A stretch of DNA of 64,000 bases, from the NCBI GenBank assembly GCA_022449765.1, contig JAKUPZ010000006.1:16897-80896 (forward strand), given 5' to 3'. The position numbers and the translations under genes are program-made. Below the pieces are notes generated by a model. It saw nothing but the letters and a program-made list of their open reading frames with translations. It did no database searches and had not been told where the DNA came from. Positions 7,369-61,555 of this stretch are shown here, piece by piece (the first letter of the stretch is position 1; every line of letters starts with the position of its first letter). The DNA comes from Dehalococcoidia bacterium (lineage in GTDB: Bacteria; Chloroflexota; Dehalococcoidia; Lucifugimonadales; Australimonadaceae).

Positions 7369-9165
7369 GTGCACATGAAGATCCTTTGGCGAATCACGAA
7401 GATCGCTGCCCTTGAACGTTCCCGCATGGCTGGAGCATGGGCCTCACTAATAGTTGCGACTATTCTATTTCTTTCCATACCTAGGCTCATAGGATTTTCA
7501 ATTGATTATGCAATTAGTGAAGGTGCTGACGAGCAACAAAGCACTCGTGTACTCGTGTACCTCGGCGCTATCGTTATTGGCGTAGTAGCGCTAAGAGGTA
7601 TCTTCAATTATGCAAATCTTTACCTCGCAGAATCAGTTTCTCAGCATGTTTCATACACAATACGAAACATGCTTTACGACAAGCTGCAACATCTGAGTTT
7701 TGCCTTCCACGATCGAGAGCACACTGGAAACTTAATGTCCAAATCGACTATTGATGTCGAAATGATGAGGATGTTTGTGAGTATGGGATTGGTACGATCA
7801 GGCCAAATCACCATGCTTGTTATTGGCTCTGCAGTAATGATGTTCTTAACAGATGTAGAATTGGCGTTAATTAGCCTTTCTTTTGTACCTGTGATTGCAG
7901 CCCGTGCAATATACGCTAGCACCCGAATGAGGAAGATGTGGTTACAAGCGCAAGTTGAGATGGGCAAACTCACTACCGTACTACAGGAGAATTTAGCCGG
8001 CCAAAGAGTTGTAAAAGCATTCGGTGCAGAGGAGCACGAAGAAAACAAATTTGACTATCAAAACGAAGCAGTTTACGAAACTACTTACATCGCTAGAAGA
8101 GCGCAGTCATCCAATAGCGCATTAATGCAAATTATCTTCTGGGCGTCCTCGGGTGTAATACTTTGGTTCGGCGGAAGGGCTGTGATAGATGAACGTATAA
8201 CCATAGGTGCGCTGGCAGAGTTCATTCTTTACACAAGCCTTTTAGTTCAACCAATGCGAATGGTAGGTTTCCTAGTCAACACATTCGCTAGAGCTGCATC
8301 TGCGGGTCAAAGACTTTTTGAAGTTCTAGATGCCCCTTCGCCGGTAAGAGAAAAAGACGATCCTCATACTTTAAGTAATGTTCATGGCTCAGTTTCATTC
8401 GATAATGTGACCTTTTCTTACGGCAATGCTGATGCAATTAAAAACGTCAGTCTCAATGTTTCACCAGGTCAAGTAATAGCTCTCATGGGTGCTCCAGGGT
8501 CAGGTAAAACTACGCTTATGAGCTTATTATCCAGATTCTATGATGTGAATGACGGTGCAATTTGCGTAGATGGAATCGACGTCAGGGAAATAAGCTTGTC
8601 TTCTTTACGTTCCAACATTGGGGTTGTGCAACAAGATGTATTTTTATTCAGTGCGACAGTAGCCGAAAATATTTCCTATGGCCATGAAAATGCAACAATG
8701 GATGAGATTATTCAGGCGGCAAAAACTGCCCAAATTCATGATGAAATCGTCGCCCTTCCAGATGGATACGAAACAGTTATTGGCGAAAGAGGAGTTTCCC
8801 TGTCTGGTGGTCAGCGGCAACGACTCTCAATCGCACGTACACTAGCAATAAATCCTGCAATCCTCATTCTTGATGATTCCACGTCAAGTGTAGATGCAGG
8901 GACTGAATCGCGGATTCAAAAAGCGTTATCAGAAGTCATCAAAGGAAGAACAACCTTCATTATCGCCCATCGTTTGTCATCAATTCAAAATGCCGAATTA
9001 GTAGTTGTAATGGAGGAAGGAAAGATTGCGGAAACGGGAACTCCAGACGAATTAATCGTGGCTGGAGGGTTATTCACAAAAGTTACTGAGCTTCAATATG
9101 CAACTAACTTGAATGGAATATCTACAACTCCTTCAAGCGTAGGCAGCAGGGGTACCTCCTCATGA
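7369..9165 (+). CDS. ABC exporter, fused permease and ATPase (type I exporter half-transporter)
   Basis: It has an N-terminal 6-TM domain, Walker A GAPGSGKTT, signature LSGGQRQR and Walker B ILILDD. Confidence 0.85.
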   Translation: MHMKILWRITKIAALERSRMAGAWASLIVATILFLSIPRLIGFSIDYAISEGADEQQSTRVLVYLGAIVIGVVALRGIFNYANLYLAESVSQHVSYTIRNMLYDKLQHLSFAFHDREHTGNLMSKSTIDVEMMRMFVSMGLVRSGQITMLVIGSAVMMFLTDVELALISLSFVPVIAARAIYASTRMRKMWLQAQVEMGKLTTVLQENLAGQRVVKAFGAEEHEENKFDYQNEAVYETTYIARRAQSSNSALMQIIFWASSGVILWFGGRAVIDERITIGALAEFILYTSLLVQPMRMVGFLVNTFARAASAGQRLFEVLDAPSPVREKDDPHTLSNVHGSVSFDNVTFSYGNADAIKNVSLNVSPGQVIALMGAPGSGKTTLMSLLSRFYDVNDGAICVDGIDVREISLSSLRSNIGVVQQDVFLFSATVAENISYGHENATMDEIIQAAKTAQIHDEIVALPDGYETVIGERGVSLSGGQRQRLSIARTLAINPAILILDDSTSSVDAGTESRIQKALSEVIKGRTTFIIAHRLSSIQNAELVVVMEEGKIAETGTPDELIVAGGLFTKVTELQYATNLNGISTTPSSVGSRGTSS

Positions 9166-11030
9166 TGATGAATACCGGTGGTGGTGGCAACTTCCTTATG
9201 CGTGCCCAAAAAGGTGATATTGACGACGAAGGCACGCGTCTATATGACCAACGAGTAGTCATACGATTGATTAAATACCTTGCTCCTTACAAATTGAGCG
9301 TTTTCATAAGTATGCTAGGAGTAATTGTTTACACACTTGCCACAATAGCTATACCCGCGATAGTTGCAATCGGAATCGACAGGTATGTTGAAACAAAGAA
9401 TGTTGATGGCCTCAATAATCTGATAATCATTTTCGGGTTTGTGCTAGTAATTCACTACATCTCAAACTATAGCCACCAAATCATCCTCGCGAAAATCAGC
9501 CAGCGTGTAATTTACGATCTAAGGACCGATTTATTTACGCACCTACAGCGACTACCTATGTCATTCCATAACAGAAACAAAGTAGGCTCTGTAATGTCTC
9601 GTGCACAGAATGATGTATATCAACTACAAGAATTTTTAGACATTATCGTATTAAGCATTGCAGATTTGCTTAGCCTTATAGGAATAATTGGATTCATGGT
9701 TGCAACCGACTGGAAATTATCCTTATGGTCGTTTGTTACGCTGCCAATTTTGATTTGGGTAATCTGGGTGTGGCAAAACCATGCAAGGCCTGCATTTTTA
9801 CGAGTCCGAATAGCAATTTCAAACGTCAATGCTTCCCTAGCCGAGAACCTTGACGGGGTTCGTGTGGTTCAAAGCATGAATAGGCAAATTAAGAATCTTG
9901 CAACCTTCAATGACGTTAATAGGTATCACTTAGATACTAATCTACGAGCACAAAGGCTTTCCTCTTCTTTAATGCCAGCCGTCGAAATGTTCATGTCATT
10001 TGGCCTGGCAGCTACCATTATTGTTGGAGGGAGACTAGTTCTCGCAGGATCTTTAGGTGCAGGACAACTAATCCAATTCACCTTATACATCCAACGATTT
10101 TTCGACCCTATCCGCAGCCTCACACAGCAATTTACACAACTACAAAGAGCAATGGCTTCTGGGTCTCGTATTTTTGATCTACTAGATGTCGAACCGGAAC
10201 TAAAGGATATTGAAGGCGCAAAGCCAATGCCTAAGATAAAAGGGGCTATTACCTATAGAAACACTTCATTTGCATATGAAGAAGACAAGCCGGTTCTACA
10301 CAACATTAATTTAGAAATTAACCCGGGCGAAACAGTTGCTCTTGTCGGTCGCACAGGAGCAGGCAAAACAACAATGGCCGCTTTAATATCAAGGTTCTAT
10401 GACGTCACGGCAGGTTCCATTGAGATAGATAACGTTGATATCCGCTCAGTGACACGGAACTCACTCGCCAAGCAAATGGGTATCGTCCTTCAGGAACCGT
10501 TCCAATTTTCAGGGACAATTTTAGAAAACATTCGCTACAACCACCCTGAAGCATCTGATGAAACGGTAGTTAACGCTGCTAAAGCCGTAGGAATTCATCA
10601 TCACATAGCAAGTTTGCCCCAAGGTTATGATTCAATGATGGAAGAAAGAGGCGGGAATATGAGCTTAGGACAACGTCAGCTCATCAGCTTTGCAAGGGCA
10701 TTAGTCGCAGATCCTCAAATAATAATACTGGATGAAGCTACAGCAAGCGTAGACACCCAAACAGAGCAACTCATTCAAACTGCAATGAAAACACTACTTA
10801 GCGGCCGAACCGCAGTGGTTATTGCACACCGGCTATCCACAATTAGGAATGCTGACCAAATAGTAGTAATGGATAAAGGGGAAATAGTCGAATTAGGGAA
10901 TCATGACAGCCTAATTGAATTAAATGGTCTGTATGCACAGCAGCATGAATTGCATGCGAGGATTAGTGCAAAAGGTATTCGCAGAGAAGATGCCCCCGCA
11001 AATGAATTTGATGAATCCTTAGATAACTAA
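9162..11030 (+). CDS. ABC exporter, fused permease and ATPase (partner half-transporter)
   Basis: It overlaps the upstream gene by ATGA. It has Walker A GRTGAGKTT, a degenerate signature MSLGQRQL and Walker B IIILDE. This fits a heterodimeric exporter pair. Confidence 0.85.
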   Translation: MMMNTGGGGNFLMRAQKGDIDDEGTRLYDQRVVIRLIKYLAPYKLSVFISMLGVIVYTLATIAIPAIVAIGIDRYVETKNVDGLNNLIIIFGFVLVIHYISNYSHQIILAKISQRVIYDLRTDLFTHLQRLPMSFHNRNKVGSVMSRAQNDVYQLQEFLDIIVLSIADLLSLIGIIGFMVATDWKLSLWSFVTLPILIWVIWVWQNHARPAFLRVRIAISNVNASLAENLDGVRVVQSMNRQIKNLATFNDVNRYHLDTNLRAQRLSSSLMPAVEMFMSFGLAATIIVGGRLVLAGSLGAGQLIQFTLYIQRFFDPIRSLTQQFTQLQRAMASGSRIFDLLDVEPELKDIEGAKPMPKIKGAITYRNTSFAYEEDKPVLHNINLEINPGETVALVGRTGAGKTTMAALISRFYDVTAGSIEIDNVDIRSVTRNSLAKQMGIVLQEPFQFSGTILENIRYNHPEASDETVVNAAKAVGIHHHIASLPQGYDSMMEERGGNMSLGQRQLISFARALVADPQIIILDEATASVDTQTEQLIQTAMKTLLSGRTAVVIAHRLSTIRNADQIVVMDKGEIVELGNHDSLIELNGLYAQQHELHARISAKGIRREDAPANEFDESLDN

Positions 11031-12382
11031 TTATTACCTAATTCGGGTGGGCATAGCTGTGCACCCAAAGTCTCCTCAATCCATTTGCTAACCCGCAGTA
11101 ATTTTGATTCATCAAACGGAGCACAAGATAATTGCGCTCCTACTGGCAAACCTTCACCTGACAAACCTATCGGTACAGAAATACTAGGGAATCCTGTAAA
11201 GCTCCATAGGCTTTGGAATCTTGTGTCTCCGGTCTGGGTTCTATCTTTTGGTGGCGGGGCAGAAACAGAAGGCATCAAAAGCGCATCAACATTTTTCACG
11301 GCTGAGGCGGCAAGTCTTTGCACTTTTATTCGATATTCAGAGGCTTCTACGTACTCCATTGCCGTGTGTGAAAATCCGTTCTCCAAATAGACACTAATTT
11401 TAGGACCGTAGAGGTTCTGATTCTCGATGTATAAAGGCTGATGCCATAGGGCCATTTCGGATTCTTGCATTAGGCGATGTGCTGCATATGCCCTTGGATA
11501 ATCAATACCTAAGTCTACTTCCTCTATTATTGCGCCAGCTTTCGCATCCTTTTGGGCGGTTTGTTCAATCGATACCCGGGTACCTGAGTCTGCCTCCTCA
11601 AAAAACCATCCTCTTAACAATCCGATTGTTGGAGAGCGAGGTACATCGATGATAGATTTCAAATAATTGTCCACAGGCATTTTCTGGGAGTAAGGATCAT
11701 GAGGATCAAAACCCGCAAATACATTCAGTAGAAGAGCCATATCATCTACAGTGCGGGCTAAAAACCCCACGTGGTCAAATGAGGTGGCCATTGGAATTAC
11801 ACCTAAGCGAGATATGCGTCCAAATGTTGGTTTAAACCCAACAATGCCGTTATATGCTGCTGGCCTCAACACTGAGCCTACTGTTTGGGTACCAAATGCC
11901 CATGGCACCATGCGTGCAGCTACGGCAACACCCGAGCCAGTGCTTGAGCCTCCAGGAGTATGCTCCATATTCCAAGGATTAAACGAGGGTGCGGGGTCAC
12001 CATCAGCAAATTCAGTAGTGTGCGTTTTTCCCAGAAGAATCGCCCCCGCTTCTTGCGCAATCTTTATGCAAGAAGCATCTTCTCCTGGAATACGATCAGC
12101 AAATATGCGTGAACCAGCTGCAGTCTTGATTCCGGCAGTATCAAATATGTCTTTTGCACCATAAGGCACACCCTCAAGAGCTCCTCTGCCTGAGGCTTTT
12201 TTATCAGACTTCGAGGCTAATGATAAAGACTCTTCAAATAGTAACGTTGCCCAAGCTTGAAAAGATGGTTCTGTCTTCTCTATACGCCGATGAATAGACT
12301 GCATAAGCTCTACAGCGGAAAGTCGCCGGGAGGCTATCTCTTCTACAGCCTCAGTTAAACTCAGTTCGTATGGCTCTGGCAT
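11027..12382 (-). CDS. amidase-signature family amidase (GatA-like fold)
   Basis: 451 aa with the amidase signature region GGSSTGSGVAVAA and KD...TAAGS. Confidence 0.8.
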   Translation of the reverse strand: MPEPYELSLTEAVEEIASRRLSAVELMQSIHRRIEKTEPSFQAWATLLFEESLSLASKSDKKASGRGALEGVPYGAKDIFDTAGIKTAAGSRIFADRIPGEDASCIKIAQEAGAILLGKTHTTEFADGDPAPSFNPWNMEHTPGGSSTGSGVAVAARMVPWAFGTQTVGSVLRPAAYNGIVGFKPTFGRISRLGVIPMATSFDHVGFLARTVDDMALLLNVFAGFDPHDPYSQKMPVDNYLKSIIDVPRSPTIGLLRGWFFEEADSGTRVSIEQTAQKDAKAGAIIEEVDLGIDYPRAYAAHRLMQESEMALWHQPLYIENQNLYGPKISVYLENGFSHTAMEYVEASEYRIKVQRLAASAVKNVDALLMPSVSAPPPKDRTQTGDTRFQSLWSFTGFPSISVPIGLSGEGLPVGAQLSCAPFDESKLLRVSKWIEETLGAQLCPPELGNN

Positions 12383-13196: not shown

Positions 13197-14189
13197 TTAC
13201 TTTGCTAAAGTCCTAGGAGTAGGTTCACTGTTATCAATTATGGCATTGCTACCGTCCCACCACGAAGTGAGGTTATCTAATTCATCAATTTCACTAGTAG
13301 ATAATTTCCAATCGAGTGCTCGCAAGTTTTTTTCAACATGCTCTGGCTGATCAAATCCAGTTAGTGTAACTGCGACTTCATGGTGTGAAATAACCCATGC
13401 AAGTGCCAATTCATACAGTGAATGCCCTCTCTGATGAGCGAATTCTTCTAATACTGGAACCAATCGATCAACTCTCTCGGATCGCATTCTAGTCACTATA
13501 CCTGTAGGGACTTTGGCTGCTCGACTGCCGACTGGGTATGGCTTTCCAGGTTCATATATACCAGTGAGCCATCCCCCTCCTAGAGGGAAATACGCCAACA
13601 ATGACTTCCCATGTTCTCTGCAAAAAGGTATCAATTCTAATTCCGGGTGACGATGGAGCAAACTGTAGTGATTTTGACTTGATTCAAACTCTGGCAATTT
13701 ATTTTGCCTCGAAAATTGAAGCTCTTCAAGCCATCTCCAAGAATATGTATTGCAGTTACCTAGGTATCGAACTTTACCTTCCTCAACCAATTCATTTAAG
13801 GGCCCAAGAAGTTCGTCATGTGGGACATCTGGTGTGGAAAAGTGGACCTGAAATAGATCAAGGTAATCCGTTCTAAGCTTTGTAAGTGCCTCTTCGCAAC
13901 GGTCATAGATCCTTTGGCGTGGTGACTTGCCTTCGAGGTTATTCAAATTGAATTTCGAAGAGAGGATAATGTTCTTCCTGAATCCTTGAACTGCTTTCCC
14001 CAAGAATATTTCGCTCTGCCCTTGGCCGTATACGTCAGATGTGTCAAAAAAATTAATACCCATTTCATACGCTTTTTCAATAACCTGCGCAGATTGAACT
14101 TGATCTAGCAATGGGGGACCAAACGGGTAACCTCCAGTGCCAATAACTGAAGCCTTTAAATCAGTTTGGCCGATTTTTCTATATTCCAT
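13197..14189 (-). CDS. aldo/keto reductase
   Basis: The AKR pattern is MEYRKIGQTDLKASVIGTG...FFDTSDVYGQGQSE...LDLFQVH. I prefer the Met at 14189, which lies 1 nt after the upstream stop, over the track start at 14225. Confidence 0.8.
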   Translation of the reverse strand: MEYRKIGQTDLKASVIGTGGYPFGPPLLDQVQSAQVIEKAYEMGINFFDTSDVYGQGQSEIFLGKAVQGFRKNIILSSKFNLNNLEGKSPRQRIYDRCEEALTKLRTDYLDLFQVHFSTPDVPHDELLGPLNELVEEGKVRYLGNCNTYSWRWLEELQFSRQNKLPEFESSQNHYSLLHRHPELELIPFCREHGKSLLAYFPLGGGWLTGIYEPGKPYPVGSRAAKVPTGIVTRMRSERVDRLVPVLEEFAHQRGHSLYELALAWVISHHEVAVTLTGFDQPEHVEKNLRALDWKLSTSEIDELDNLTSWWDGSNAIIDNSEPTPRTLAK

Positions 14190-15684: not shown

Positions 15685-15831
15685 ATTCCTCCAAAATAAT
15701 ATCTTGCTTATTTGCTTCTAAATCTTACGCTATCTGGTGAGAAATGATGATACATAAGGTTGACAGTGAGCCTACTGCTAAATATTGTTCATAGAATAAT
15801 AAAGTCCCGATTAACAGGAGGCTCAATAGTT

Positions 15832-17049
15832 ATGCGACTTATCACTCCATTTCTGGTGCTAGCCGCAACCATGCTGGTACTGGTTGGATGCGGTGGAGAC
15901 GATCCAACGCCCACTCCAGCACCTGCTAAAGCTGCACCCGCTGCAGCAGTGGCCACACCTACACCCGCCCCTGCACCAACACCTACACCTCGAGGAGTGG
16001 TACGTAAGCCTGCTGCTACACCCACACCTACGAAAGCCTTTGATGCGGAGGCACATTTCAAAGGACAGCGTGTGGTGATTAACGTAGGGTTCTCGCCTGG
16101 TGGAGGATATGACACCTTCGCCCGCCTAATGGGTAGATATTTACCAAAGCACTTACCTGGAAACCCTTCATTTGTGGTCCGGAATATACCGGGAGCAGGA
16201 GGGGAAAGAATATTTCGTGAGACACTTGCGGATTCAGCCCCTGACGGATTTGCCGTTGGTGTTGCACATCCAAGATTTTTCAAACGAGAATTAGTTGGAA
16301 CTGACGTACCCAACTTAGATATCAATACTGTGAAAATCCTTGGAACAGCGTCAGCAGTATCGGTAGTTAACGCAATGTACGCCTTTAAAGATTACGCCCA
16401 AAGCTGGGAAGACGTATTAGCAAAAGGATCTCCTGCTAAGGTTGGAGCTACTGCCCCTGGAGATACTGGTGGAGTGGGAGCATCTTTCGTTGAGTTAGTC
16501 GGAGGTCCCATCAAAAACGTATATGGGTACGGCGGGACATCTGAAATAGCCGCAGCCTTTGACCGCAGGGAAATCGACCTATCATCTAGAGGGGACCCTG
16601 ACACAGCTAAAAGCTTATTCCCCCGATGGGTTGAAGAAAAGAAAATTGTTCCAGTATTCCGATGGGGAACAGAGCCTGAAAACGACGCAGAATTCACGAA
16701 TTATGTCCAAAACGAACTTGGTGCTAGTATTCCACCTCATTTATTTGACGTGATTGAACTCTCTGATGCACAAAAGGCCTTGTTCAACGTAACAGAAACA
16801 ATAAATGACAAGATGAACAGGCTATTTATAATGCATCCTGATACTCCAGAGGATCTGTATAGGATCTGGGTTGATGCATTCAAAGCTACAGCTGCAGACC
16901 CAGAGTTTTTAGCAGCTGCCAAACTGCTGGGTAGAGAAGTAGGGTATGCGGGACCAGACGAGATGAAAACGATACTTGCTCAAGGTACCGAAGCGCTTAA
17001 AGACCCTGTACTACGTGAAGGATTTATTTCCCTTGCGGGAGTGAAATAA
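15832..17049 (+). CDS. TctC/Bug-like periplasmic solute-binding lipoprotein with a long Pro/Ala/Thr linker
   Basis: AGGAGG lies 10 nt upstream of the ATG at 15832. It has the lipobox LVLVGCGG and a PTPAP-rich linker. The Bug/TctC motif is GFSPGGGYDTFARL...VRNIPGAGG. Confidence 0.65.
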   Translation: MRLITPFLVLAATMLVLVGCGGDDPTPTPAPAKAAPAAAVATPTPAPAPTPTPRGVVRKPAATPTPTKAFDAEAHFKGQRVVINVGFSPGGGYDTFARLMGRYLPKHLPGNPSFVVRNIPGAGGERIFRETLADSAPDGFAVGVAHPRFFKRELVGTDVPNLDINTVKILGTASAVSVVNAMYAFKDYAQSWEDVLAKGSPAKVGATAPGDTGGVGASFVELVGGPIKNVYGYGGTSEIAAAFDRREIDLSSRGDPDTAKSLFPRWVEEKKIVPVFRWGTEPENDAEFTNYVQNELGASIPPHLFDVIELSDAQKALFNVTETINDKMNRLFIMHPDTPEDLYRIWVDAFKATAADPEFLAAAKLLGREVGYAGPDEMKTILAQGTEALKDPVLREGFISLAGVK

Positions 17050-17058
17050 GACAAACAA

Positions 17059-17096
17059 GAAGGGCTCCTCAAAATGAGGAGCCCTTCTGTTATTTA
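17059..17096. terminator. rho-independent terminator between convergent genes
   Basis: The hairpin GAAGGGCTCCTC-AAAAT-GAGGAGCCCTTC is followed by TGTTATTT. Confidence 0.7.
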
Positions 17097-18185: not shown

Positions 18186-19880
18186 CTACACAAAAGCAAG
18201 AGCCTTACTCCTCGCCACGCGGCCAGGAAGAGCACCTGTATGTATCCCATTCTTCAATAGAATTTCCCCATTCACAATTGTAAATAAAACTCCTATCGCT
18301 TCTTGCTTTAATCTGGTCAATCCACCAGGTAAGTCATCCACTTCCTCAGGTTCCAAAGCACCCACTGTATCAGGGTCAAAAATAACTATGTCTGCATTAA
18401 ATCCTGGGCGTATCAGGCCTCGATCATACAATCCATATATAGAGGCCTGCATAAACGTTAGCTTTCTTACAGCTTCCTCTAATGAAAGGGCTTTTTCTTC
18501 ACGAACCCATCTACCAAGGACCATTGTGCTGTACCCATAACCTGCCTCAAAAACTACATGCGCTCCAGCGTCAGATAAGCCTATCAAGGTATAAGGACTG
18601 GATATCAACGCAGCCATAACTCCACCGTCAGCTCCCTGCTGTGAATTTTGCAGCCCTGTCCCCAGTTCTTCATCTACCATCAATTCTAAGAAGGCATCTA
18701 ATACCTCTTTCCCTTGGGATTGAGCCATTTCAGCAATGCTCATACCTTGGAAATGACGATTGGCCTCTTTCAATGTTCTGGTAATTAAAATACGATCCCA
18801 TTTAATTGGTAATGCGCCGATCGGCAAATCATCGCCATCAACTGCTTCTTTCTTCAAAGCATCTCTTAGATCCATATCATTAAAAGCAGCTATTTTCTCC
18901 TGTACTGTACCAAGCATTATTGGTCGCCACGTTGGGAGTCGGTCAAAAATTTGCGCATTTCGCATTGTGAAACGCTGTGCTGAAGGGCGGGGATTCACAA
19001 CCGGGTATACTTGGTACCCTTCGCTTATCCGCTTCTCCACTAGATCAAGATGCATTTTCCATCTATCGGGTTCGTTTGAATTATGAACGATTTGATTGTA
19101 TACAACCGGTCTATGTGAAACTTCACCAAGCCTTGTCGCAAACCCATCTCTAATTTCTAATGGGTACGCAGCCCCGCATTGGATGACTCCTGCCCCAACA
19201 TCTTTGAGCGCAGTTGCAAGCTCATATAACTCTTCTACGGGAGGTACAATTCCAGGAATAGGTCGGCCCAATAAATCCATATGCCCACGATTGCGATTAA
19301 ATGAGATCCCTAAAGCTCCAGCCTGAATAGACTCTCTGAGTAAATCTTTCATTTGCGATAATTCAGCTTCAGTAGCTATCTCACGTTCATAAGCATCTTC
19401 ACCCATAACCCAGCGTCTTATAGCTGAGTGACCAACAAGTGAACCCGCATTAATACCAAGATTTTGATCAATAAAATCTAAATACTCACCAAAGGAAGTC
19501 CATTCCCAAGGTATTCCTTCTTTTAAGCTTTCCATCGGAATAGCCTCAACTCTCGAAAGCATCATAGCGAGGTCTTCGCGATCTTCAGGCTTAGTAGGTG
19601 CCAGAGTTAGCGAACAATTGCCAAAAATTACGGTTGTAACACCGTGTTGTGGAGAAAAAGTACATAACGGATCCCAAGTAACCTGAGCATCAAAGTGACA
19701 ATGGTTATCAATGAAACCAGGTGCTACGACTAAGCCAGAAGCATCAATTACTTGGCGAGCAGATGTCCCAAGGTGGCCTATGTCAGTTATTCGTCCTTCT
19801 ACAATGCCAACATCCGCAATAAATGAAGGCATCCCTGAACCATCAGCAATCCGACCATTTTTTATCAGTAAATCGTACAT
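18186..19880 (-). CDS. D-aminoacylase-like amidohydrolase (N-acyl-D-amino-acid deacylase family)
   Basis: 564 aa. The N-terminus YDLLIKNGRIADGSG...VAPGFIDNHCHFD is the metal-binding HxH motif of this family. Confidence 0.7.
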   Translation of the reverse strand: MYDLLIKNGRIADGSGMPSFIADVGIVEGRITDIGHLGTSARQVIDASGLVVAPGFIDNHCHFDAQVTWDPLCTFSPQHGVTTVIFGNCSLTLAPTKPEDREDLAMMLSRVEAIPMESLKEGIPWEWTSFGEYLDFIDQNLGINAGSLVGHSAIRRWVMGEDAYEREIATEAELSQMKDLLRESIQAGALGISFNRNRGHMDLLGRPIPGIVPPVEELYELATALKDVGAGVIQCGAAYPLEIRDGFATRLGEVSHRPVVYNQIVHNSNEPDRWKMHLDLVEKRISEGYQVYPVVNPRPSAQRFTMRNAQIFDRLPTWRPIMLGTVQEKIAAFNDMDLRDALKKEAVDGDDLPIGALPIKWDRILITRTLKEANRHFQGMSIAEMAQSQGKEVLDAFLELMVDEELGTGLQNSQQGADGGVMAALISSPYTLIGLSDAGAHVVFEAGYGYSTMVLGRWVREEKALSLEEAVRKLTFMQASIYGLYDRGLIRPGFNADIVIFDPDTVGALEPEEVDDLPGGLTRLKQEAIGVLFTIVNGEILLKNGIHTGALPGRVARSKALAFV

Positions 19881-19971: not shown

Positions 19972-20766
19972 CTAATCCCAGCGAGTTTTGGGGCGGGTTT
20001 CCAAAACCCCGTCCACATACATGTCTACTTTACCTTGAGGGAAACAAATGCAATTTTGAATCGCAGAGACTTCCGGGATCGGATTGTTATAAACCCAAGC
20101 TATATCCTCAATGGATTCTTCTTCGTTCTTAAAGTCATAGTATTGCGCCTCACCTTTGTAAGGTGAAGGAATTTTTCGAGAATTTTGCGCAAGGTATGAA
20201 GTTATCACGTCGGATAATGGAATATAAAAACGCCTTGGGAGACCCGTCTCTACGAGCAAAATTGGACTAGTAGTTTTAGCTACGAGCAGTGAATTTATAT
20301 AGATTTCAATTAGGCGATTACTACGAAGACAATCGACCCTTGTGTAAGGATCTTTGACACCGAAAAACACCTGCTCATTTTCCTCAAACCAAGCATCCAC
20401 TTTGCTCCAATAGAATGCAACATACCCGCGAATATCAAGGCAGTCTTCAAGCGGTTCCGAATAGCACCACACCGCGTCTTCACTGAATGAATCCCCAACT
20501 CTGATGCTCCAATACTGAGCATCCCCTTTGATTGGTCAATGCGTTGAGCGAATTGAGGTCTCCAAAAGTTCCATCCGGACATCACTAAAAGGGAAATAAT
20601 AAACAGGCTGATGGTTTGTCTCATGCATTATGAGAACCCTGCTACTACTTGCAATTGTTTCTCCCGCAAACTCCACTCGGATTTTCTTAGAAGTGGGCTC
20701 CATAAATGCCAAGTGCTCATTTATCCCTTGAGCGTTTGCACTTAATGCCCTGAAAGCTTGTGTCAT
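19972..20766 (-). CDS. tandem DUF427 protein with one in-frame UGA at 20536..20538 (candidate selenocysteine codon; alternatively a pseudogene or sequencing error)
   Basis: - ORFs 20536..20766 and 19972..20472 share one frame.
- The 21 intervening codons read PIKGDAQYWSIRVGDSFSEDA.
- The joined 264-aa protein has two DUF427 repeats.
- The UGA occupies the Cys position of the H-C-P-x-K-G-x-A-x-Y-W motif.
- GGGAGG lies 5 nt upstream of the ATG at 20766. Confidence 0.6.
20503..20523 (-). other. SECIS-like stem-loop 12 nt downstream of the in-frame UGA
   Basis: The mRNA reads UGA-CCAAUCAAAGGG-GAUGCUC-AGUAUUG-GAGCAUC. This gives a perfect 7-bp stem and a 7-nt loop with G at its second position. 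Confidence 0.4.
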
Positions 20767-20854
20767 GCTGACCTCCCGAAGCTAAAGAATACTGAAAAAC
20801 ATGCAGGAAACCTGCAGTCACGATATATTATCGCTATAACCCGAGGTAAAGCGA

Positions 20855-21586
20855 ATGATAGAACTAGAAACTGGGGCTTGGGCTGCCCTGGCGCTTGGAT
20901 TTTTATTGGGCCTAAAGCATGCTACTGACGCGGATCATGTAGTAGCTATTTCTGTGATCGCAAAAGAAGAGGCCAGCGCATGGAAGGGAATTTGGGTAGG
21001 GTTATCGTGGAGCCTAGGCCACACAACTCCTCTTTTTGTTTTAGGAATCATTATCCTTTTATTAAAAGAGGCAGTTTTAACGCATTACGTTAATTTCGCA
21101 CCAACTCTAGAGCTTTTTGTAGGCTTCATGTTGCTTTTCCTAGGGTTCCAAGTGTTCTATAACCTCCAAAGAGGGACCCTTCACCTACACCAACATGAGC
21201 ATGACGGACAATCCCACTTACATGTTCACGCGACCCATGCTACTGAAATCGAACCGATAAAAATCTCTACCCATAATTTTTGGAGTATGAGCAAGCCTTC
21301 CTTTCGAACGAAATCGTACGTTATTGGGGTAATCCATGGACTTGCGGGTAGTGCGGCAGTAATGCTTGTACTTCTTCCTCAAATAGAGTCTATTTGGGTT
21401 GGAGTTGGTTATTTAGTGATGTTTGGAGTAGGAACATGCATATCAATGTGTGCAATAACAATAGCGCTTAGTGTTCCTTTTGCGCTCACTGCCAACGCAA
21501 AAAATTTCAATACTTACATTGCGTTCATAGCGGGGCTAGCCAGCACAGCGTTCGGCTGCGTAATAATTTATGGATATTTCTCTTAG
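20855..21586 (+). CDS. NiCoT-like nickel/cobalt transporter family membrane protein with a His-rich loop
   Basis: It has the signature GLKHATDADHVVAI (HX4DH) in TM1, a LGHTTPL motif, and a central loop LHLHQHEHDGQSHLHVHATHATE. It has about 6 TM segments. Confidence 0.55.
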   Translation: MIELETGAWAALALGFLLGLKHATDADHVVAISVIAKEEASAWKGIWVGLSWSLGHTTPLFVLGIIILLLKEAVLTHYVNFAPTLELFVGFMLLFLGFQVFYNLQRGTLHLHQHEHDGQSHLHVHATHATEIEPIKISTHNFWSMSKPSFRTKSYVIGVIHGLAGSAAVMLVLLPQIESIWVGVGYLVMFGVGTCISMCAITIALSVPFALTANAKNFNTYIAFIAGLASTAFGCVIIYGYFS

Positions 21587-32372: not shown

Positions 32373-33188
32373 TCACTGTGCCGTGATAGTTTGCCCGCCA
32401 TCAACTACTAACGCATGCCCCGTTACGTAAGAAGACTCATTCGAAGCCAGAAAAAGTACGCAATATGCAACTTCTTCCGAGAGTCCCAAGCGGTGTAAAC
32501 CAGCGACGCGCTTTTCACTGGCGATTTTCTGCTCTTCCGTCACTTGACGAGCTCTTGGGGGATATTCTCGAACGCGATTGGTTTCTATTGGCCCAGGGCA
32601 AACGCAATTGACTCTGATCTCTGGCCCATAATCAATAGCTAATTGGCGAGTAAGGTTAATTATTCCTGCCTTAGTAGCGCTATATGCAGGATAGTTAGGA
32701 CTAGCCAAAATACCTAGACTGGATGCGGTACAAACAATATTGCCATGACCCTGTCTCATAAAAATTGGTAGTGCAGCGCGGACTCCATGAAAAATCCCAT
32801 AAAGATTTAATTGAACAACGTGATCCCATGCTTCCTCAGACATTTCGTGTATTTTCTGCCGGACTCCTGTACCTGCATTTAAAAACAAAATATCAAGTCC
32901 ACCAAATTGTTCGCTAGCCGTTTTCACCATTGCTAAACAGCCAGATTCTTGGCTAACGTCCTCGCATACAAAGACTGCTTCACCGCCATCGTTGCTTATC
33001 AATTGATCGATTCTTGGGTTTCCTCGCTCCGCAATATCAACACAGACAACTTTTGCCCCTTCAAGTGCAAAAAGCCTGGCAGTGGCTCGCCCTATACCAC
33101 TATCTGCACCCGTAACAATCGCGACTTTACCATGAAGTCGGCCAAGGCCTGCCATCATGCGCGGGTGCTCATCAGCTAAATCGGCCAT
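32373..33188 (-). CDS. SDR family oxidoreductase (classical short-chain dehydrogenase)
   Basis: It has the cofactor motif TGADSGIG, NAG, and a catalytic S...YSATK. Confidence 0.85.
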   Translation of the reverse strand: MADLADEHPRMMAGLGRLHGKVAIVTGADSGIGRATARLFALEGAKVVCVDIAERGNPRIDQLISNDGGEAVFVCEDVSQESGCLAMVKTASEQFGGLDILFLNAGTGVRQKIHEMSEEAWDHVVQLNLYGIFHGVRAALPIFMRQGHGNIVCTASSLGILASPNYPAYSATKAGIINLTRQLAIDYGPEIRVNCVCPGPIETNRVREYPPRARQVTEEQKIASEKRVAGLHRLGLSEEVAYCVLFLASNESSYVTGHALVVDGGQTITAQ

Positions 33189-33242
33189 ATCCCCTCCTCA
33201 TTGGTGTTCAAGTGCCAATTATCACGCCATAAGCATCAACAC

Positions 33243-33458
33243 TTACTTTTGCGTTCTCCCGTCACCACGTGGCTGAAATATTGAACCTGCTCCTGGCAAA
33301 TTTGCAGGAGTTGACTTTTTCCCTCGCCCTACTCCTAATACTTGCCCTTTGGACAAAAGCCCTAAAGAGGATACTGCCGCACCCAAAAGAGCGACTTTCT
33401 TTAAAAAGCCCCTACGCGATACATTGCCTTGGGGCGAAGAAACTGTTTGGTCTGACAT
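33243..33458 (-). CDS. 71-aa protein consisting essentially of a twin-arginine (Tat) signal peptide plus a short tail
   Basis: The sequence is MSDQTVSSPQGNVSRRGFLKKVALLGAAVSSLGLL, followed by a Gly/Lys/Pro-rich 36-aa tail. It lies 54 nt upstream of the SDR on the same strand. Confidence 0.5.
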   Translation of the reverse strand: MSDQTVSSPQGNVSRRGFLKKVALLGAAVSSLGLLSKGQVLGVGRGKKSTPANLPGAGSIFQPRGDGRTQK

Positions 33459-33738
33459 AGTGTCTCCTTGATACAGACTATTGTAGATTTATCAGAATCA
33501 TTTTCAAGGCCAAAAAGTGATTGTTTAAAAGATTTCCTTAAGCAAGTTTACCTGATTTCCATCAGTATTTACGGATACAAGACTCACTTTAAATTCCATA
33601 TGCGAAATTCGTCACAAATAGGTGTTGACACCCCCACTACGCTGGTTTAACGTGAGCGTGTGGTTGATGTAATGTCAACTATACCCCGCCAGTAAGTAAT
33701 GATCGCAGGGATCTATAATTCAGATGTCGCGAGATTAG

Positions 33739-34047
33739 GTGTCAATGACTGGTCCAGATCCGAATTACATATCTCTAGAAAATTGGGATGCTTTAAGCAA
33801 GCTACTTGCATCACTATGGCTGATTCTTGGAGCAGCTCTTGGATTTGCAGCTTCTATGCTTTTAGCTCATGGAATGATTCCATCGTTAGCTGCATCCAGA
33901 GATATTCCCCAAGCCATTGCAAAAAAGATGCGTGCGCCACTTTACGCTGCCGCGCTTTTCTTTGCAGGTATGGCCGCTTATGCCATCTATCTATTTATAG
34001 ACAGGCTTTTTGTAATTCCTGATATTTTCAATCGAGGTGGTCAGTAG
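33739..34047 (+). CDS. small two-helix membrane protein immediately upstream of the ACIII genes
   Basis: It has two hydrophobic helices (LLASLWLILGAALGFAASMLLA and LYAAALFFAGMAAYAIYLFI). The ATG at 33745 is an alternative start. It matches no family I recognise. Confidence 0.45.
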   Translation: MSMTGPDPNYISLENWDALSKLLASLWLILGAALGFAASMLLAHGMIPSLAASRDIPQAIAKKMRAPLYAAALFFAGMAAYAIYLFIDRLFVIPDIFNRGGQ

Positions 34048-34068
34048 CCACTTAGGCCATTTTCTTTA

Positions 34069-54142: not shown

Positions 54143-57100
54143 TCATTCAGCAATGTTTATTTTACCTTGCACATATTCAACAATTGACGCTACGTTGTAA
54201 TCATTACCCCTATCTACTAAAGCTTCTATTGCAGCTCGAGCAGTATCCATAGATGTATAACAAGGAATTCTTCTTTCTGTTGCAGATCGTCTTATTTCAA
54301 ATCCATCTTTCAATGACTGTGCTACTTGTTCAACGGTGTTAATAACAGCGTTCACAGTACCATCTGCAACCACTGAATATGCATTGGGATACGGCTCGCC
54401 AACTTTGTTGACTTCTATGGCATCTATACCAATAGTTCGCATTAATGACGCAGTCCCTTTAGTTGCATAAAGCTGGTAATCTAAAGAAGCGATTGATTTA
54501 AGCCAAGGCACTGCTTCTGCTTTGTCTTTATCGGCAATAGTAACCAATAAGGACCCAGATGTTGGAAGCATTAATCCTGAAGCTACAAGAGCTTTAGCGA
54601 TTGCAAATCTAGGCTCTATGTCTACACCCATTACCTCTCCAGTTGATTTCATTTCTGGACCTAAATAGGTATCTACTCCTGTTAATTTTGACATCGAAAA
54701 TACTGGAGCTTTTACACTGGACAAAGGAGGGATAGGGTACAACCCTCCCTCATATCCTTGCTGCCGTAATGTCTGCCCAATCATTACATTAGTCGCTATT
54801 TGAACCATTGGGATATCAGTGACTTTAGAAATGAAAGGTATTGTTCTGCTAGAACGTGGATTTACTTCGATAACATACACTGAGGAAAGACCAGAATCAG
54901 CTGAAAGAGTAATGCCGTAAGGTCGACTTTCATTCATTATTACGTACTGGATATTCATCAGCCCTTTGACTCCTAGGGCCAAGCCTATCCGTGTACTGTA
55001 ATCGACAATAATGTCCTTCTCGTACTCAGATAAATTATTAGAAGGGAAAAGGGCCATTGAATCACCCGAATGAACACCAGCCCGTTCAATATGCTCCATT
55101 ATGCCAGGGATAAGAACCTTCTCACCGTCTACTACAGCATCAATTTCAACTTCCCTTCCCTGGAAATATTTGTCTATCAGAATTGGTCTGTTCGGCGCAG
55201 CTTCAAAAGCCTTAGCTAAGTACCTTTTAAATTCCACTTCATTATCAACAATTTCCATTGCGCGACCCCCAAGTACATAACTAGGGCGCACTACCAGAGG
55301 GAAATCTATTTCTTGGGCAATTTTTAGACCTTCATCCAGTGATAAAGCAGTAGCTCCTGGAGGTTGGGGAATACCCAAATTTTTCATAAGTTCCCCAAAT
55401 CTCTCCCTATCAGAGGCAATATCTATAGCATCGGCAGATGAACCCAGAATAGGCAAGCCAGCCTCTCCCAACGCCTGACTTAGATTAATTGCAGTTTGTC
55501 CTCCAAATTGCACAACCGAGGGAGGATATTTAGATCCTATACGCTCATTGTCTACAATATCGCGAACGCTTTCTTCATCTAAAGGCTCAAAATAAAGTCG
55601 ATCACTAGTATCAAAGTCAGTTGAAACTGTCTCAGGGTTTGAATTGACCAAAATAGAACTCACACCAGAGGAACCCAAAGCCCATGCTGCGTGCACTGAA
55701 CAATAATCGAATTCGATTCCTTGTCCAATACGAATAGGACCACTTCCAATTACCAGCGCTTTTTCACCTTCCAAAGGAGTAGCTTCGTTTTCCTGTTCGT
55801 AAGTACTATAAAAATAAGTAGTCACTGCTTCAAATTCAGCAGCGCAGGTATCAACCATTTTGTAGACCGGTTTAATATTTTCCTTTATCCGTAACTGTCG
55901 AATTTCTTCAGTTGATAGACCTACTAGAGCGGCTATGGTTTCATCCGGAACTCCGATTGATTTAGCCTCTTGAAGAAGACTATGATCCAATTTTTCCTCA
56001 GTCAGTCTCCGGTACATATGCGCTATGCGTTGCATCCCATGTAGAAACCATGGATCAATATGTGTGATCTTTGCCAGCTCGCTGACATCTGCCTCTTTGC
56101 GAAGAGCGGCAAATACAGCCCAAAGCCGAAGATCAGTCGGGTCAAGAGGGAGGTTTTCAACTTTTGCGTTCTGCCAAGCAGGATCTTCCCAGAGTAAGGA
56201 TTGGCCACCAAGTTCCAATGATCGAACAGCCTTGTGCAGTGCGGCCTCAAAGCTTCGGTCAATTGCCATCACTTCACCAGTGGCCTTCATTTGAGTGCTT
56301 ATTGCTCGATCACCCGTAGCAAATTTGTCAAATGGCCAACGAGGAATCTTAATAACGCAGTAGTCCAAAGCTGGTTCAAAAGCCGCTGCAGTACGTTGCG
56401 TGACTGCATTCGGTATGTCCATAAGCCTTAATCCAACTGCAATTTTTGCGGCAACTCGTGCAATTGGATAGCCTGTTGCCTTAGATGCTAATGCTGATGA
56501 TCTACTGACCCGAGGGTTAACTTCTATTACAAAATATTCTAGAGGGTTTGGATTATCACCTGGCAAAGAATCGCCAATAATCGGATTGGGTGCTAGCCCA
56601 AATTGAATATTACAGCCGCCTTCAATACCTAGCGCCCTAATAATTCTAATGCTCGCGGAACGAAGCATTTGATACTCAATGTCTGAAAGAGTCTGGCTTG
56701 GTGCAATAACTATGCTATCCCCAGTATGGACACCCATCGCATCAAAATTTTCCATATTGCATATGGTTATGCATGTATCGGAAGAATCTCGCATAACTTC
56801 ATATTCAACCTCACGCCATCCTCTCATCGATCTTTCTACTAAGATCTGATTAATCGGACTAGCAGCTAGCCCACTTTCAACAACAGTACGTAGTTCTTCA
56901 AACGTTGTAGCAAAGCCTCCGCCAGTACCGCCTAGCGTGTAAGCAGGGCGCACGACTAGTGGTAGACCCAAGTCATAACCGACCTGCATAGCCTCTTCAA
57001 TAGAGTTAGCAATTTCGCTTGGGGCAATAGGTTCTCCAAGATCATTTAATAAATTTCTAAATAGCTCTCTATCTTCGGCCGTTTTAATGGTATTAATCGA

Positions 57101-57460
57101 CGTTCCTAATAATCTGACTCCATACTGATCAAGAATGCCTGCTTCATCAAGCGAGACTGCAAGATTAAGTCCAGTTTGTCCTCCAAGAGTCGGCAGAAGA
57201 CCATCAGGCTTCTCTCTTTGAATTACCCTCTCTATTACCTCTACTGTTAGAGGTTCAATGTATACAGCATCTGCAATCTCTTTATCCGTCATAATAGTGG
57301 CCGGATTAGAATTAACTAAGACGACAGAAATTCCTTCTTCTCTAAGTGCCTTGCATGCCTGTGTACCTGCGTAGTCGAATTCAGCAGCTTGGCCAATTAC
57401 TATCGGACCGCTTCCGATAACAAGCACTTTTCTTATATCTCTATTTGCCGTTTGCGTCAT
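54143..57460 (-). CDS. carB: carbamoyl-phosphate synthase large subunit
   Basis: 1105 aa with duplicated ATP-grasp halves. The N-terminus is [25 protein letters not shown] and the repeat is [20 protein letters not shown]. Confidence 0.95.
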   Translation of the reverse strand: [1105 protein letters not shown]

Positions 57461-58527
57461 TTCTGCACCAACTCAATGAACTGATCAAATATATATGCGT
57501 TATCCAACGGACCCGGTGCAGCTTCTGAGTGGTACTGGATCGAAACGATTGGCAGCTCTTCGTGCCTTATACCTTCAATGGTTCCATCATTTAGATTTTT
57601 ATGCGTAACAATTAGACCTGCAGGCAAATCAGTTTCATCAACTGCATACCCATGATTTTGTGCAGTTATATAAACTTTGCCCGAATTAAGATCTTGGACG
57701 GGATGGTTACCACCTCTATGTCCAAATTTCAATTTATAGGTGCTTGCACCAAGAGCGCGTGCAATTATTTGATGACCTAGGCATATCCCGAGGGTTGGAA
57801 TTTTTCGGACTATAGAACTAGCGGTTGCAACTGTTCCCTGGTTATGCACAGGGTCACCTGGTCCTGGCGAAAAAACCACGCCATCTGGATTAATATTGAG
57901 AATTTCATCAGAAGAAACATTTGAGGGGAATACGTGAATTTTGCAGTTACGTATAGCCAGGTTCCTTAGTATGTTGTACTTCACGCCGCAATCGACTAAT
58001 GCAATTTTTAAGGCACCTTCATTGTTCCAGATATATTCGTTTGCCGTAGTAACTCTTTCAACAAAATTAACAGTATCGTAAGCGGGGCTGTTGGATAATT
58101 CTTCAAAAGCTTCTTGAGGGTTACCGGTAGTAACCATTCCCATCATTACGCCTTCCGAACGAATGCGTCGAGTAATAGCCCTCGTATCAACACCGGAAAG
58201 ACCAGGAATACCGCGTTCTTTCAAATAGTCGGATAGCGTATTTTGTACATCAAAATGACTTGGTGTGGGTGAATGGCTTCTAATTACAAAAGATGCTACT
58301 TGAATTTTGGATGATTCCTCGTAACTCTGGTTCACTCCGTAATTCCCCTGCATTGGGTAAGTAGGAATAACAATCTGCCCAGCGTATGAAGGATCAGTCA
58401 GAATTTCTTGATACCCGGACATACTAGTATTAAATACTACTTCACCGTAAGCATTACCTTCTGATCCATATGAAATCCCTTGATATATCGACCCATCGCT
58501 TAAAACTAAGTAACCCTTTTTAGTCAT
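57457..58527 (-). CDS. carA: carbamoyl-phosphate synthase small (glutaminase) subunit
   Basis: The N-terminus is GYLVLSDGSIYQG and the class-I amidotransferase motif is GICLGHQ. I prefer the ATG at 58527, which overlaps the pyrC stop by 8 nt. Confidence 0.9.
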   Translation of the reverse strand: MTKKGYLVLSDGSIYQGISYGSEGNAYGEVVFNTSMSGYQEILTDPSYAGQIVIPTYPMQGNYGVNQSYEESSKIQVASFVIRSHSPTPSHFDVQNTLSDYLKERGIPGLSGVDTRAITRRIRSEGVMMGMVTTGNPQEAFEELSNSPAYDTVNFVERVTTANEYIWNNEGALKIALVDCGVKYNILRNLAIRNCKIHVFPSNVSSDEILNINPDGVVFSPGPGDPVHNQGTVATASSIVRKIPTLGICLGHQIIARALGASTYKLKFGHRGGNHPVQDLNSGKVYITAQNHGYAVDETDLPAGLIVTHKNLNDGTIEGIRHEELPIVSIQYHSEAAPGPLDNAYIFDQFIELVQK

Positions 58528-59866
58528 TAGGCATATCTTCGTAAGCAATTTGGCCATTAGCTATTGTTAATTTCACTTTACCTCTTAATTCTGAAGACTC
58601 TAAAGGCGTATTTTTACCCTTAGAGTTAAATTTATTTGTATTAACAGTCCATTTTTCCTCAGTATCAATCAACACGATATCCGCAAAACTACCTGTCCCG
58701 AGATGTGATAGTCCGTTATATTTCGCGCCTAATACAGACGCAGGACCAACAGTAAGGCGATGAACCAAATCCGGTAGTTTAATGATATTCGCGTGAACAA
58801 GAGTCATTAATGAACCAAATGCTGTTTCTAAAACTGAAATCCCCACCGAAGCCTGATCAAAAGGAACTGCTTTGTCCCCAAAAGTATGAGGGGCATGATC
58901 AGTCGCAATCGCATCAATAGTCCCATCCTTCAATCCCTCTATGAGCTTCTCTCTGTCATGATGGGTGCGTAATGGAGGGCTGACTTTTGCTCTTGTGTCA
59001 TATGCATTTGCAGTAATAATCTCAAGATTAGAATAGTCATCTTTCTCACCTAGGATCCAATCCTCAGTCATTGTCAAATGATGAGGAGTAACTTCAGCAG
59101 TTACATGTACGCCTCGAGACTTGGCGCTCCTGACTAGATCGACTCCACCAGAGGTACTAATGTGCGCAATATGAAGGTGTGAACCTGTATGTTCAGCAAT
59201 TGCTATATCACGAGCTATGATCGATTCTTCTGCCGCAGACGGATAACCCTGTAATCCCAGTCGGTAAGAAACTTTGCCTTCGTGTATACCCAGCCCTTTA
59301 GTCATTGAATAGTCTTCACAATGATCCATGACCGGAAGTTTTAAATCGCTCGCATAACGTAAAGCCATTTCCATTAAATGCCCAGATTGAACAGGGCTTC
59401 CATCATCAGTGAAACCTACTACGCCTGCACTAGCTAGTTCTTCCATATCAGTTAACTCCACCCCGTTTCGGCCTTTAGAAACTGCTCCGAAACAAAACAC
59501 TCGGATCGGACCAGCTTTACTTGCCTGCAGTGTGATGTAGTCAACTACATGCGCAGAATCTATTGCGGGGTTCGTGTTAGGCATTGCGCAAATTGTGGTA
59601 AATCCCCCAGCTGCAGCAGCTGATGTACCACTAGATATAGATTCCTTATCTTCAAAACCGGGCTCTCGAAGGTGAGTATGAATGTCTATAAACCCTGGGG
59701 TGACCACTAGACCCGAAGCGTCAATTACTTTCGCAAGCGTGGCATCAAACTCTTCCCCTGAGACAATTTTATCGCCATGGATAAAAATATCTCTTATTGA
59801 ATCTTCTTCATTTAAAGGGTCGATAATACGACCGCCTTTAATCACCAATCGATCCGGTGTCTTCAT
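58520..59866 (-). CDS. pyrC: dihydroorotase
   Basis: It has PGFIDIHTHLREPG, ATDHAPH, and the amidohydrolase fold. Confidence 0.9.
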   Translation of the reverse strand: MKTPDRLVIKGGRIIDPLNEEDSIRDIFIHGDKIVSGEEFDATLAKVIDASGLVVTPGFIDIHTHLREPGFEDKESISSGTSAAAAGGFTTICAMPNTNPAIDSAHVVDYITLQASKAGPIRVFCFGAVSKGRNGVELTDMEELASAGVVGFTDDGSPVQSGHLMEMALRYASDLKLPVMDHCEDYSMTKGLGIHEGKVSYRLGLQGYPSAAEESIIARDIAIAEHTGSHLHIAHISTSGGVDLVRSAKSRGVHVTAEVTPHHLTMTEDWILGEKDDYSNLEIITANAYDTRAKVSPPLRTHHDREKLIEGLKDGTIDAIATDHAPHTFGDKAVPFDQASVGISVLETAFGSLMTLVHANIIKLPDLVHRLTVGPASVLGAKYNGLSHLGTGSFADIVLIDTEEKWTVNTNKFNSKGKNTPLESSELRGKVKLTIANGQIAYEDMPND

Positions 59867-61418: not shown

Positions 61419-61515
61419 AAAAAACCTCTTACCCGAACGGCAAGAGGTGACATATAAAAAAGACTATTTTTCAAAATCTCACCTTGCCAGCCTCACAGGA
61501 CTGATTTAAAGGTAT
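61417..61515 (-). promoter_or_regulatory. PyrR-binding attenuator (binding loop, antiterminator, terminator) in the pyr operon leader
   Basis: - The minus-strand RNA reads CCUUUAAAUCAGUCCUGUGAGGCUGGCAAGG, which matches the PyrR box UCC-GAGAGGCU-GCAAGG.
- A terminator follows: CCUCUUGCC-GUUC-GGGUAAGAGG plus U8.
- GGCAAGGUGA can alternatively pair with UCACCUCUUGCC to form the antiterminator. Confidence 0.7.
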
Positions 61516-61555
61516 GTCAATTATGCAACTTACTACCGGATACTGCAAGTAGTAT

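Follow-up and report, generated by a model that had tools for sequence, protein, structure and literature searches.

Does the in-frame UGA at codon 77 of a DUF427 gene from a Dehalococcoidia bacterium end translation, or does it encode selenocysteine (Sec)? The gene occupies positions 19972..20766 of the minus strand in a 64,000-nucleotide (nt) stretch of contig JAKUPZ010000006.1 (assembly GCA_022449765.1), hereafter the window, and was proposed as a candidate selenoprotein gene in an initial annotation made from the letters alone. As that annotation held, the open reading frames (ORFs) 20536..20766 (76 amino acids, aa) and 19972..20472 (166 aa) share a single frame, their starts being offset by 294 nt, that is, 76 codons plus the TGA plus 21 codons, and the sole interruption of the joined frame is a TGA on the complement of 20536..20538. 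The 21 codons that bridge this TGA and the GTG at 20472, where ORF finders place a start, read PIKGDAQYWSIRVGDSFSEDA. The joined product runs from an ATG at 20766 to a TAG stop at 19972-19974 and has 264 aa, with the UGA as residue 77 in the motif T-H-U-P-I-K-G-D-A-Q-Y-W, where U marks the proposed Sec. A strong Shine-Dalgarno sequence, GGGAGG (20772..20777, minus strand), stands 5 nt before the ATG. The tandem DUF427 architecture read from the sequence is recovered by Pfam as two PF04248 domains (E 1.5e-59, 198 bits against a cut-off of 22.1), and the second domain indeed carries Ser at the position equivalent to the UGA (IPSPYKGEAQYY). TGA is otherwise an ordinary stop: it terminates 12 of the 56 long ORFs in the window, including the one cited earlier at 9163-9165, which lies within an ATGA overlap, so the genetic code is standard and no reassignment is involved.

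The UGA had been suggested to stand in the place of a conserved Cys, and alignment with homologues bears this out. A search covering 5.8 billion protein clusters returned pieces of 153-177 aa, the closest relatives among them, that span only the C-terminal 58-66% of the query, together with full-length relatives of 250-290 aa at no more than 52% identity. Every aligned full-length protein has Cys at the UGA column, within the motif H-C-P-x-K-G-D-A-x-Y-W, and so does 3DJM, the only solved DUF427 structure (matched at E 1.3e-13). At the nucleotide level, about 60 homologous loci, belonging to Actinomycetota, Alphaproteobacteria and other Dehalococcoidia, have a TGC or TGT codon here, and the residue has disappeared from a few loci.

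Orthologous loci show that the TGA is no peculiarity of one genome. Upstream of three truncated relatives (73%, 55% and 50% identity), the DNA holds an in-frame DUF427 fragment of 76-77 aa with a TGA at the same codon. In a species-level survey with one genome per GTDB species (80 loci; individual loci are designated by L numbers), a TGA stands at the equivalent of codon 77 in L007-L016, which are ten Dehalococcoidia metagenome-assembled genomes (MAGs), mostly complete chromosomes, in L022, a further Dehalococcoidia MAG, and in L040 and L082, which are unclassified bacteria; with the loci read in addition to the survey, the TGA forms comprise L001-L016, L022, L040 and L082. No fewer than 17 species-level genomes, with protein identities of 50-75%, thus have the TGA form, distributed over a main Dehalococcoidia/SAR202 clade and at least two other lineages; the window apart, TGA occupies this codon in 16 loci from other genomes and assemblies. 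The frames of the TGA-form loci are otherwise free of stops and frameshifts. The window's exact N-terminal fragment occurs in 127 indexed blocks of the assembly collection. Within the window's own species, 11 independent assemblies, including Tara Oceans, the NCBI MAG GCA_025944025.1 and a 251-kb contig, differ from the window by 1-10 nt across the gene, all with the TGA and an identical hairpin downstream of it. Such recurrence of TGA at one codon is far beyond chance. Comparison of the window with eight orthologues shows saturation at synonymous sites (proportion of synonymous differences, pS, 0.7-1.0) and a proportion of nonsynonymous differences (pN) of 0.08-0.31 whether the N-terminal part, the bridge of 21 codons or the C-terminal part is considered; purifying selection acts on both sides of the UGA and on the bridge. 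Since the UGA is conserved in an intact frame and pN lies far below pS in all three segments, the ribosome evidently reads through it.

The hairpin that had been noticed after the UGA exists, and its conservation can be followed across lineages. In the window it is a SECIS-like (Sec insertion sequence) upper stem-loop at 20503..20523 on the minus strand, beginning 12 nt after the UGA, in which GAUGCUC and GAGCAUC form 7 bp around the loop AGUAUUG, with GU in the apical loop and a centroid energy of -10.3 kcal/mol. Minimum-free-energy (MFE) structures add a possible lower stem (20495..20535, minus strand), in which CCAAU at 20531-20535 pairs with GUUGG at 20495-20499; this stem is tentative, because the pairing is only partly conserved across lineages. 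Each of the 17 distinct TGA forms has the upper hairpin, always at +13 to +33 from the UGA. Because it overlaps the conserved KGDAxYWS motif, its stability was compared with that of recodings in which synonymous codons were resampled with each genome's own usage. All 17 TGA forms are more stable than their recodings (z -2.0 to -3.4, p 0.002-0.044; for the window, z -3.1, p 0.006), as against a mean z of -0.5 in 54 Cys forms (Sec versus Cys, Mann-Whitney p ~1e-8). The hairpin, at its fixed distance from the UGA, is therefore kept to a degree that the peptide alone does not call for. The total folding energy of the whole region is uninformative in this comparison, because the Cys-form genomes are GC-rich.

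The codons that build the stem vary by lineage, with Ser AGC, Ser UCU or Thr ACG. The main clade has GAY-GCY...AGC-RUC, with a U-A to C-G exchange between the pair formed by the window and L001 and the other members; the stem is GCC-AGG...UGG-UCU in L022 and GCG-UCC...GGA-CGC in L040 and L082. The same peptide, KGDAQYWSI, is encoded in the Cys form L020 with UCG as the Ser codon, and there the hairpin is absent.

As for the machinery of Sec incorporation, the outcome is divided: selA is present on the same chromosome as a TGA-type orthologue, and selB, selD and tRNA-Sec were not found in the flanks read. On the chromosome of L007 (OZ241740.1, 2.38 Mb), selA lies 8 kb downstream of the TGA-type DUF427 gene; its product scores 518.6 bits with TIGR00474 (cut-off 267.9) and is 50% identical to E. 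coli SelA. With this SelA as query, a second one was mapped on a contig of 3,162,299 bp, and OZ251500.1, the chromosome of L013, is equally 3,162,299 bp long. About 2 kb beyond selA on OZ241740.1, two adjacent in-frame ORFs of a DUF3179 gene are joined by a TGA in the context Y-U-T-L-C, and a comparable stem-loop lies about 15 nt past this UGA. DUF3179 is listed, with a UxxC motif, as a selenoprotein family (PMC13188914). The gene, at L089:13308-14564 (OZ241740.1 / ctg12652_31x_c), is annotated as two ORFs of 175 and 235 aa, with the TGA at 13833-13835 in the context FALAY-U-TLC.

Closer to the window, selA contigs with conserved selA-MFS_3 synteny have 41-43% GC and a tetranucleotide correlation of 0.89-0.96 with it, as high as that of known same-lineage contigs. 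In addition, three pairs of SelA and DUF427-fragment accessions from low-GC SAR202/Chloroflexi MAGs have close numbers: MBL75645 and MBL75722 differ by 77, MQF86614 and MQF86486 (from a 'SAR202 cluster bacterium') by 128, and MBI68117 and MBI67314, this third case belonging to the window's own 90%-identity cluster, by 803; because accessions are sequential within one whole-genome shotgun submission, each pair probably comes from the same MAG. According to BSepDB, two Dehalococcoidia MAGs, with 49 and 46 selenoprotein genes, are among the ten bacteria richest in such genes (PMC13326102).

The arrangement of selA followed by a convergent MFS_3/MFS_1 transporter gene recurs in L089, L091, L093, L094 and L095, that is, in both high-GC (sponge-type) and low-GC (pelagic) Dehalococcoidia, and selB, selD or tRNA-Sec adjoin selA in none of the five. 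Near the low-GC selA of L093, at 10134-11378, stand a Thioredoxin_2 gene (165 aa) and a glutaredoxin-like ORF of 75 aa, families that often have Sec forms. ARAGORN detected tRNA-Sec in none of the loci examined, and tblastn with E. coli queries detected neither SelB nor SelD in the TGA-type loci. A GTPase in L010 was considered as SelB and rejected as BipA-like. The only SelB match came from a Cys-type actinobacterial locus, L053, where a true SelB (L053:3833-5647, TIGR00475, 308 bits) is encoded less than 1 kb from the Cys-type DUF427 gene of an Actinomycetota MAG; some Cys-form organisms therefore also use Sec.

Taken together, these results give a probability of roughly 0.88 that UGA77 encodes Sec, and we regard the gene as a genuine candidate selenoprotein gene. 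Taken by itself, one window would have allowed the TGA to be a nonsense mutation of a pseudogene in decay, or else an error of sequencing or assembly; with the same TGA in the at least 17 species-level genomes and the 11 independent same-species assemblies, no further stop or frameshift, and strong purifying selection throughout, such an origin is barely conceivable. A genuinely split gene, in which a 76-aa protein ends at the UGA and a separate 166-aa protein starts from the GTG at 20472, is what public gene calls suggest, all of which give two ORFs. Yet the 21 bridge codons are as constrained at the amino-acid level as the rest (pN 0.08-0.26 with pS 0.7-1.0) and encode the most conserved motif of the family, PxKGDAxYW; the TGA falls on the Cys column; the gene callers disagree on the start of the C-terminal fragment, their products ranging from 142 to 177 aa; and, judging from the structural model, the cut would fall in the middle of a hairpin in the first beta-sandwich domain. 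Two separate proteins are thus very improbable, and the pseudogene, sequencing-error and two-gene explanations are effectively excluded.

What the selection data establish is readthrough of the UGA frame, whichever amino acid is inserted. A near-cognate tRNA could insert Trp, Cys or Arg, or the Sec machinery could insert Cys at low selenium, giving a full-length protein free of selenium. Selenium is scarce in the surface ocean, which counts in favor of such a product, as does the fact that selB, selD and tRNA-Sec were not directly observed in the flanks read. Against it stand the exact alignment of UGA with Cys, the classic signature of Sec; the SECIS-like hairpin kept at the canonical distance; the presence of SelA and of a UxxC selenoprotein gene in the same genome (OZ241740.1); the normal use of TGA as a stop elsewhere in the window; and the lineage itself, which is documented as a heavy user of Sec (PMC13326102). 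We therefore regard readthrough without Sec as unlikely.

Several observations nevertheless weigh against decoding of UGA77 as Sec, or at least limit it. The gene is a candidate identified by sequence comparison. Neither selB, selD nor tRNA-Sec was found in the window or in about 1.5 Mb of flanks, which is absence of data and not of genes, because only flanks of up to 20 kb each were covered; and the link of SelA to the window's own genome is one that we infer from accession proximity and base composition. With respect to the hairpin, 13% of the Cys forms also pass the recoding test, and a peptide of the A-S-Y-W-T type can by itself yield part of the structure. A column-by-column analysis of covariation gave no significant signal, as there is little variation within the main clade and the registers of L022, L040 and L082 are shifted; neither gathering-threshold nor E-value searches matched a SECIS family of Rfam. 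Beyond DUF427 itself, the fold search gave only weak matches to Mis18/Yippee proteins (E 0.1-0.4, probability 0.9-1.0, target-normalised template modelling score 0.6-0.7). Finally, the neighbours of the gene vary by lineage, and no universal operon partner was found among the loci compared.

Neighbour joining groups the window with L001, L005-L016 and L022 in a Sec clade, and L040 and L082 are nested separately among Cys forms of the alphaproteobacterial type. These sequences indicate three or more independent Cys-to-Sec switches, each of them at the site in domain 1. Among Cys forms, the equivalent Cys of domain 2 hardly ever varies, and it is kept in L022, L040 and L082. Throughout the main Sec clade (window, L005-L016), by contrast, its counterpart, residue 201 of the window protein, is Ser, so that only domain 1 retains a reactive chalcogen there. 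This asymmetric loss points to the domain-1 residue as the probable primary reactive centre; by analogy, the Cys of domain 2 may have an auxiliary or resolving role that can be dispensed with when Sec is there. In this regard, the Sec forms of Msr enzymes are known to do without a resolving Cys, which recalls the Cys-to-Ser change in domain 2. The repeated switches, together with the disappearance of Cys from domain 2 of the oldest Sec clade, constitute a natural experiment on how Sec reshapes an active site.

A structural view of the site comes from a model of P0003, the closest Cys homologue (mean predicted local distance difference test score 91.6). In this model, Cys78 ends a strand of residues 69-78 and the C-P-x-K-G turn leads into the strand 82-91; because the turn joins these two strands, the Cys or Sec residue is predicted to lie at an exposed hairpin tip. 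The 3DJM structure aligns to the model with a root-mean-square deviation of 1.5 A (fold-search E ~5e-10). DUF427 has been placed in the beta-tent fold with MsrB, although without a zinc site (PMC4287342), and the weak Mis18/Yippee matches of the model would be in line with this published placement; the fold by itself implies no particular enzymatic activity. No MsrB structure was present among the 50 best fold-search matches listed. Membership in MsrB/SelR itself was rejected: Pfam gives only PF04248, the sequence has no CxxC pairs, and DUF427 lacks the zinc site. The literature on DUF427/PF04248 gives no function, most apparent mentions of DUF427 being in fact DUF4276 or DUF4278, and we know of no sulfoxide reductase activity attributed to the domain.

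The genomic surroundings offer further hints. The next gene downstream, after a gap of 91 nt, encodes an Amidohydro_3 amidohydrolase (18186..19880) and is a probable operon partner; MsrA (PF01625, 17631..18170) and an OsmC-like protein (PF02566, 17111..17551) follow as third and fourth genes of the unit, all on the minus strand. The unit is closed by a bidirectional terminator-like hairpin of 14 bp (17058..17088), a perfect GC-rich palindrome with T-runs on both strands that sits between the OsmC gene and a convergent 429-aa ORF (15760-17049) with no Pfam match. On the other side, a NicO-family metal transporter gene (20855..21586, plus strand) diverges from the DUF427 gene; the two genes are adjacent in L001 as in the window's species, and 2.6 kb apart in L007.

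Across lineages, the Amidohydro_3 proteins are 73-85% identical between the 43%-GC window and the 60-66%-GC L001, L007, L008, L011, L015 and L016. The amidohydrolase shows higher conservation than DUF427 and has MsrA as its partner in nearly every case, and the two look like a tightly conserved module. Of the 14 main-clade genomes besides the window, 6 have Amidohydro_3-MsrA(-OsmC) within about 6 kb of the DUF427 gene; the figure for Cys-type or other loci is 1 of 67. Elsewhere, a Zn-dependent alcohol dehydrogenase gene stands directly upstream of DUF427 in five sponge-type genomes, and katG directly downstream in L005. The gene context thus hints at a theme of redox and oxidative-stress chemistry.

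These observations allow us to propose a model. During translation, the hairpin, whose stem begins 12 nt past the UGA, would recruit SelB-GTP-Sec-tRNA(Sec), and UGA77 would be decoded as Sec instead of stop. The Sec would come to lie in the N-terminal domain, where two strands joined by the U-P-x-K-G turn form a beta-hairpin with the Sec at its tip; by analogy with other Sec/Cys pairs, it would most likely serve in catalysis, as a redox-active centre or as a nucleophile. The DUF427 gene heads a probable operon with the amidohydrolase, MsrA and OsmC in the window's species, and a role in the repair of oxidative damage or in detoxification is a speculative reading of this context. Carried further, DUF427 might be an unrecognised class of thiol- or selenol-dependent beta-tent enzymes, with a single Cys or Sec nucleophile at the hairpin tip, working in oxidative-damage repair or detoxification with MsrA, OsmC or KatG, a proposal that we put forward tentatively and consider rather doubtful as it stands. 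One possibility within it would be a non-homologous functional analogue of MsrB or of a peroxidase. If this were true, its Sec forms would be abundant in ocean SAR202 and in sponge-associated Dehalococcoidia.

As to the doubt, left by the initial annotation, whether DUF427 is already catalogued among selenoproteins, the family (PF04248) does not appear in the GOS selenoproteome paper, among the 119 families tabulated in a 2026 review (PMC13188914), in the text and supplements of deep-Sep or in the text of BSepDB (PMC13326102); beyond these sources, an earlier listing as an unvalidated candidate is possible. Literature searches pairing DUF427 with selenoprotein gave nothing relevant, the mentions of PF04248 being unrelated; no NCBIfam model matches the DUF427 product; and the database matches included no full-length, Sec-annotated version. 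Public records call the pieces 'hypothetical protein' or 'DUF427 domain-containing protein', and hundreds of entries split the gene into pieces of 76-88 and 142-177 aa, a systematic annotation error. One member of the SAR202-type cluster of DUF427 fragments, MBO39545.1, is deposited as 'Rhodospirillaceae bacterium', and its source is probably a mis-binned or mis-classified MAG contig.

With DUF427, the prokaryotic selenoproteome would gain a family beyond the 119 families and subfamilies of the 2026 review (PMC13188914), in a host group, SAR202/Dehalococcoidia, that is among the most abundant deep-ocean and sponge-associated bacteria and among the richest known Sec users. DUF427 is a widespread bacterial and fungal domain with a crystal structure and no known function, and because few features predict catalytic redox cysteines as well as Sec/Cys pairs do, the UGA provides a first functional clue for it at the level of a residue.

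Other features of the window stand apart from this gene. Two scans for further Sec candidates in the 64 kb gave none that was convincing. At 33150-34060, about 900 bp hold no long ORF and several short ORFs split by TGA codons. A PyrR-binding RNA element (RF00515, 63.7 bits) at 61415-61516 on the minus strand precedes a run of minus-strand ORFs (54143-61418) that includes one of 1105 aa and is probably a pyrimidine biosynthesis operon.

How does the candidate compare with known systems? Its nearest counterparts are the Cys-containing tandem DUF427 proteins of Actinomycetota, Alphaproteobacteria and other Dehalococcoidia, which likewise have two PF04248 domains, are 40-52% identical over at least 90% of the length and have the motif H-C-P-x-K-G-D-A-x-Y-W in common with the window protein. 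Their genes differ in having TGC or TGT in place of TGA and in lacking a selected hairpin, and nearly all of the proteins keep the domain-2 Cys that is Ser in the main Sec clade. The SECIS element of E. coli fdhF is a stem-loop that starts about 11-12 nt after the UGA and has G/U in its apical loop, and the DUF427 hairpin is likewise an intra-ORF stem-loop of this geometry. The two sequences are unrelated, however, and no bulged U is evident in the DUF427 hairpin, whose loop and register also differ among lineages and which matches no SECIS family in Rfam.

Animal MsrB1 (selenoprotein R) is a selenoprotein of the beta-tent fold, in which DUF427 has been classified together with MsrB (PMC4287342), both would carry a catalytic Sec or Cys, and a further link is that the unit of the window gene includes MsrA; nevertheless, sequence similarity is undetectable, DUF427 is without the zinc site, and the SECIS of the eukaryotic gene lies in the 3' untranslated region. 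The closest parallel in genetic organization is offered by the bacterial Sec/Cys-pair families DUF3179 (PF11376, UxxC/T), Sec-MsrA, OsmC-like and AhpD-like (PMC13188914), in which, as in DUF427, the UGA stands at a conserved Cys and is followed by a stem-loop within the coding sequence, the Sec forms are scattered among Cys forms through several independent switches, and the genes are routinely annotated as two ORFs. DUF427 differs from them in belonging to another fold and family and in having, instead of a UxxC or CxxU motif, a lone Sec in H-U-P-x-K-G. It is, on this comparison, a well-supported candidate for a new family within the known class of bacterial Sec/Cys-pair proteins.

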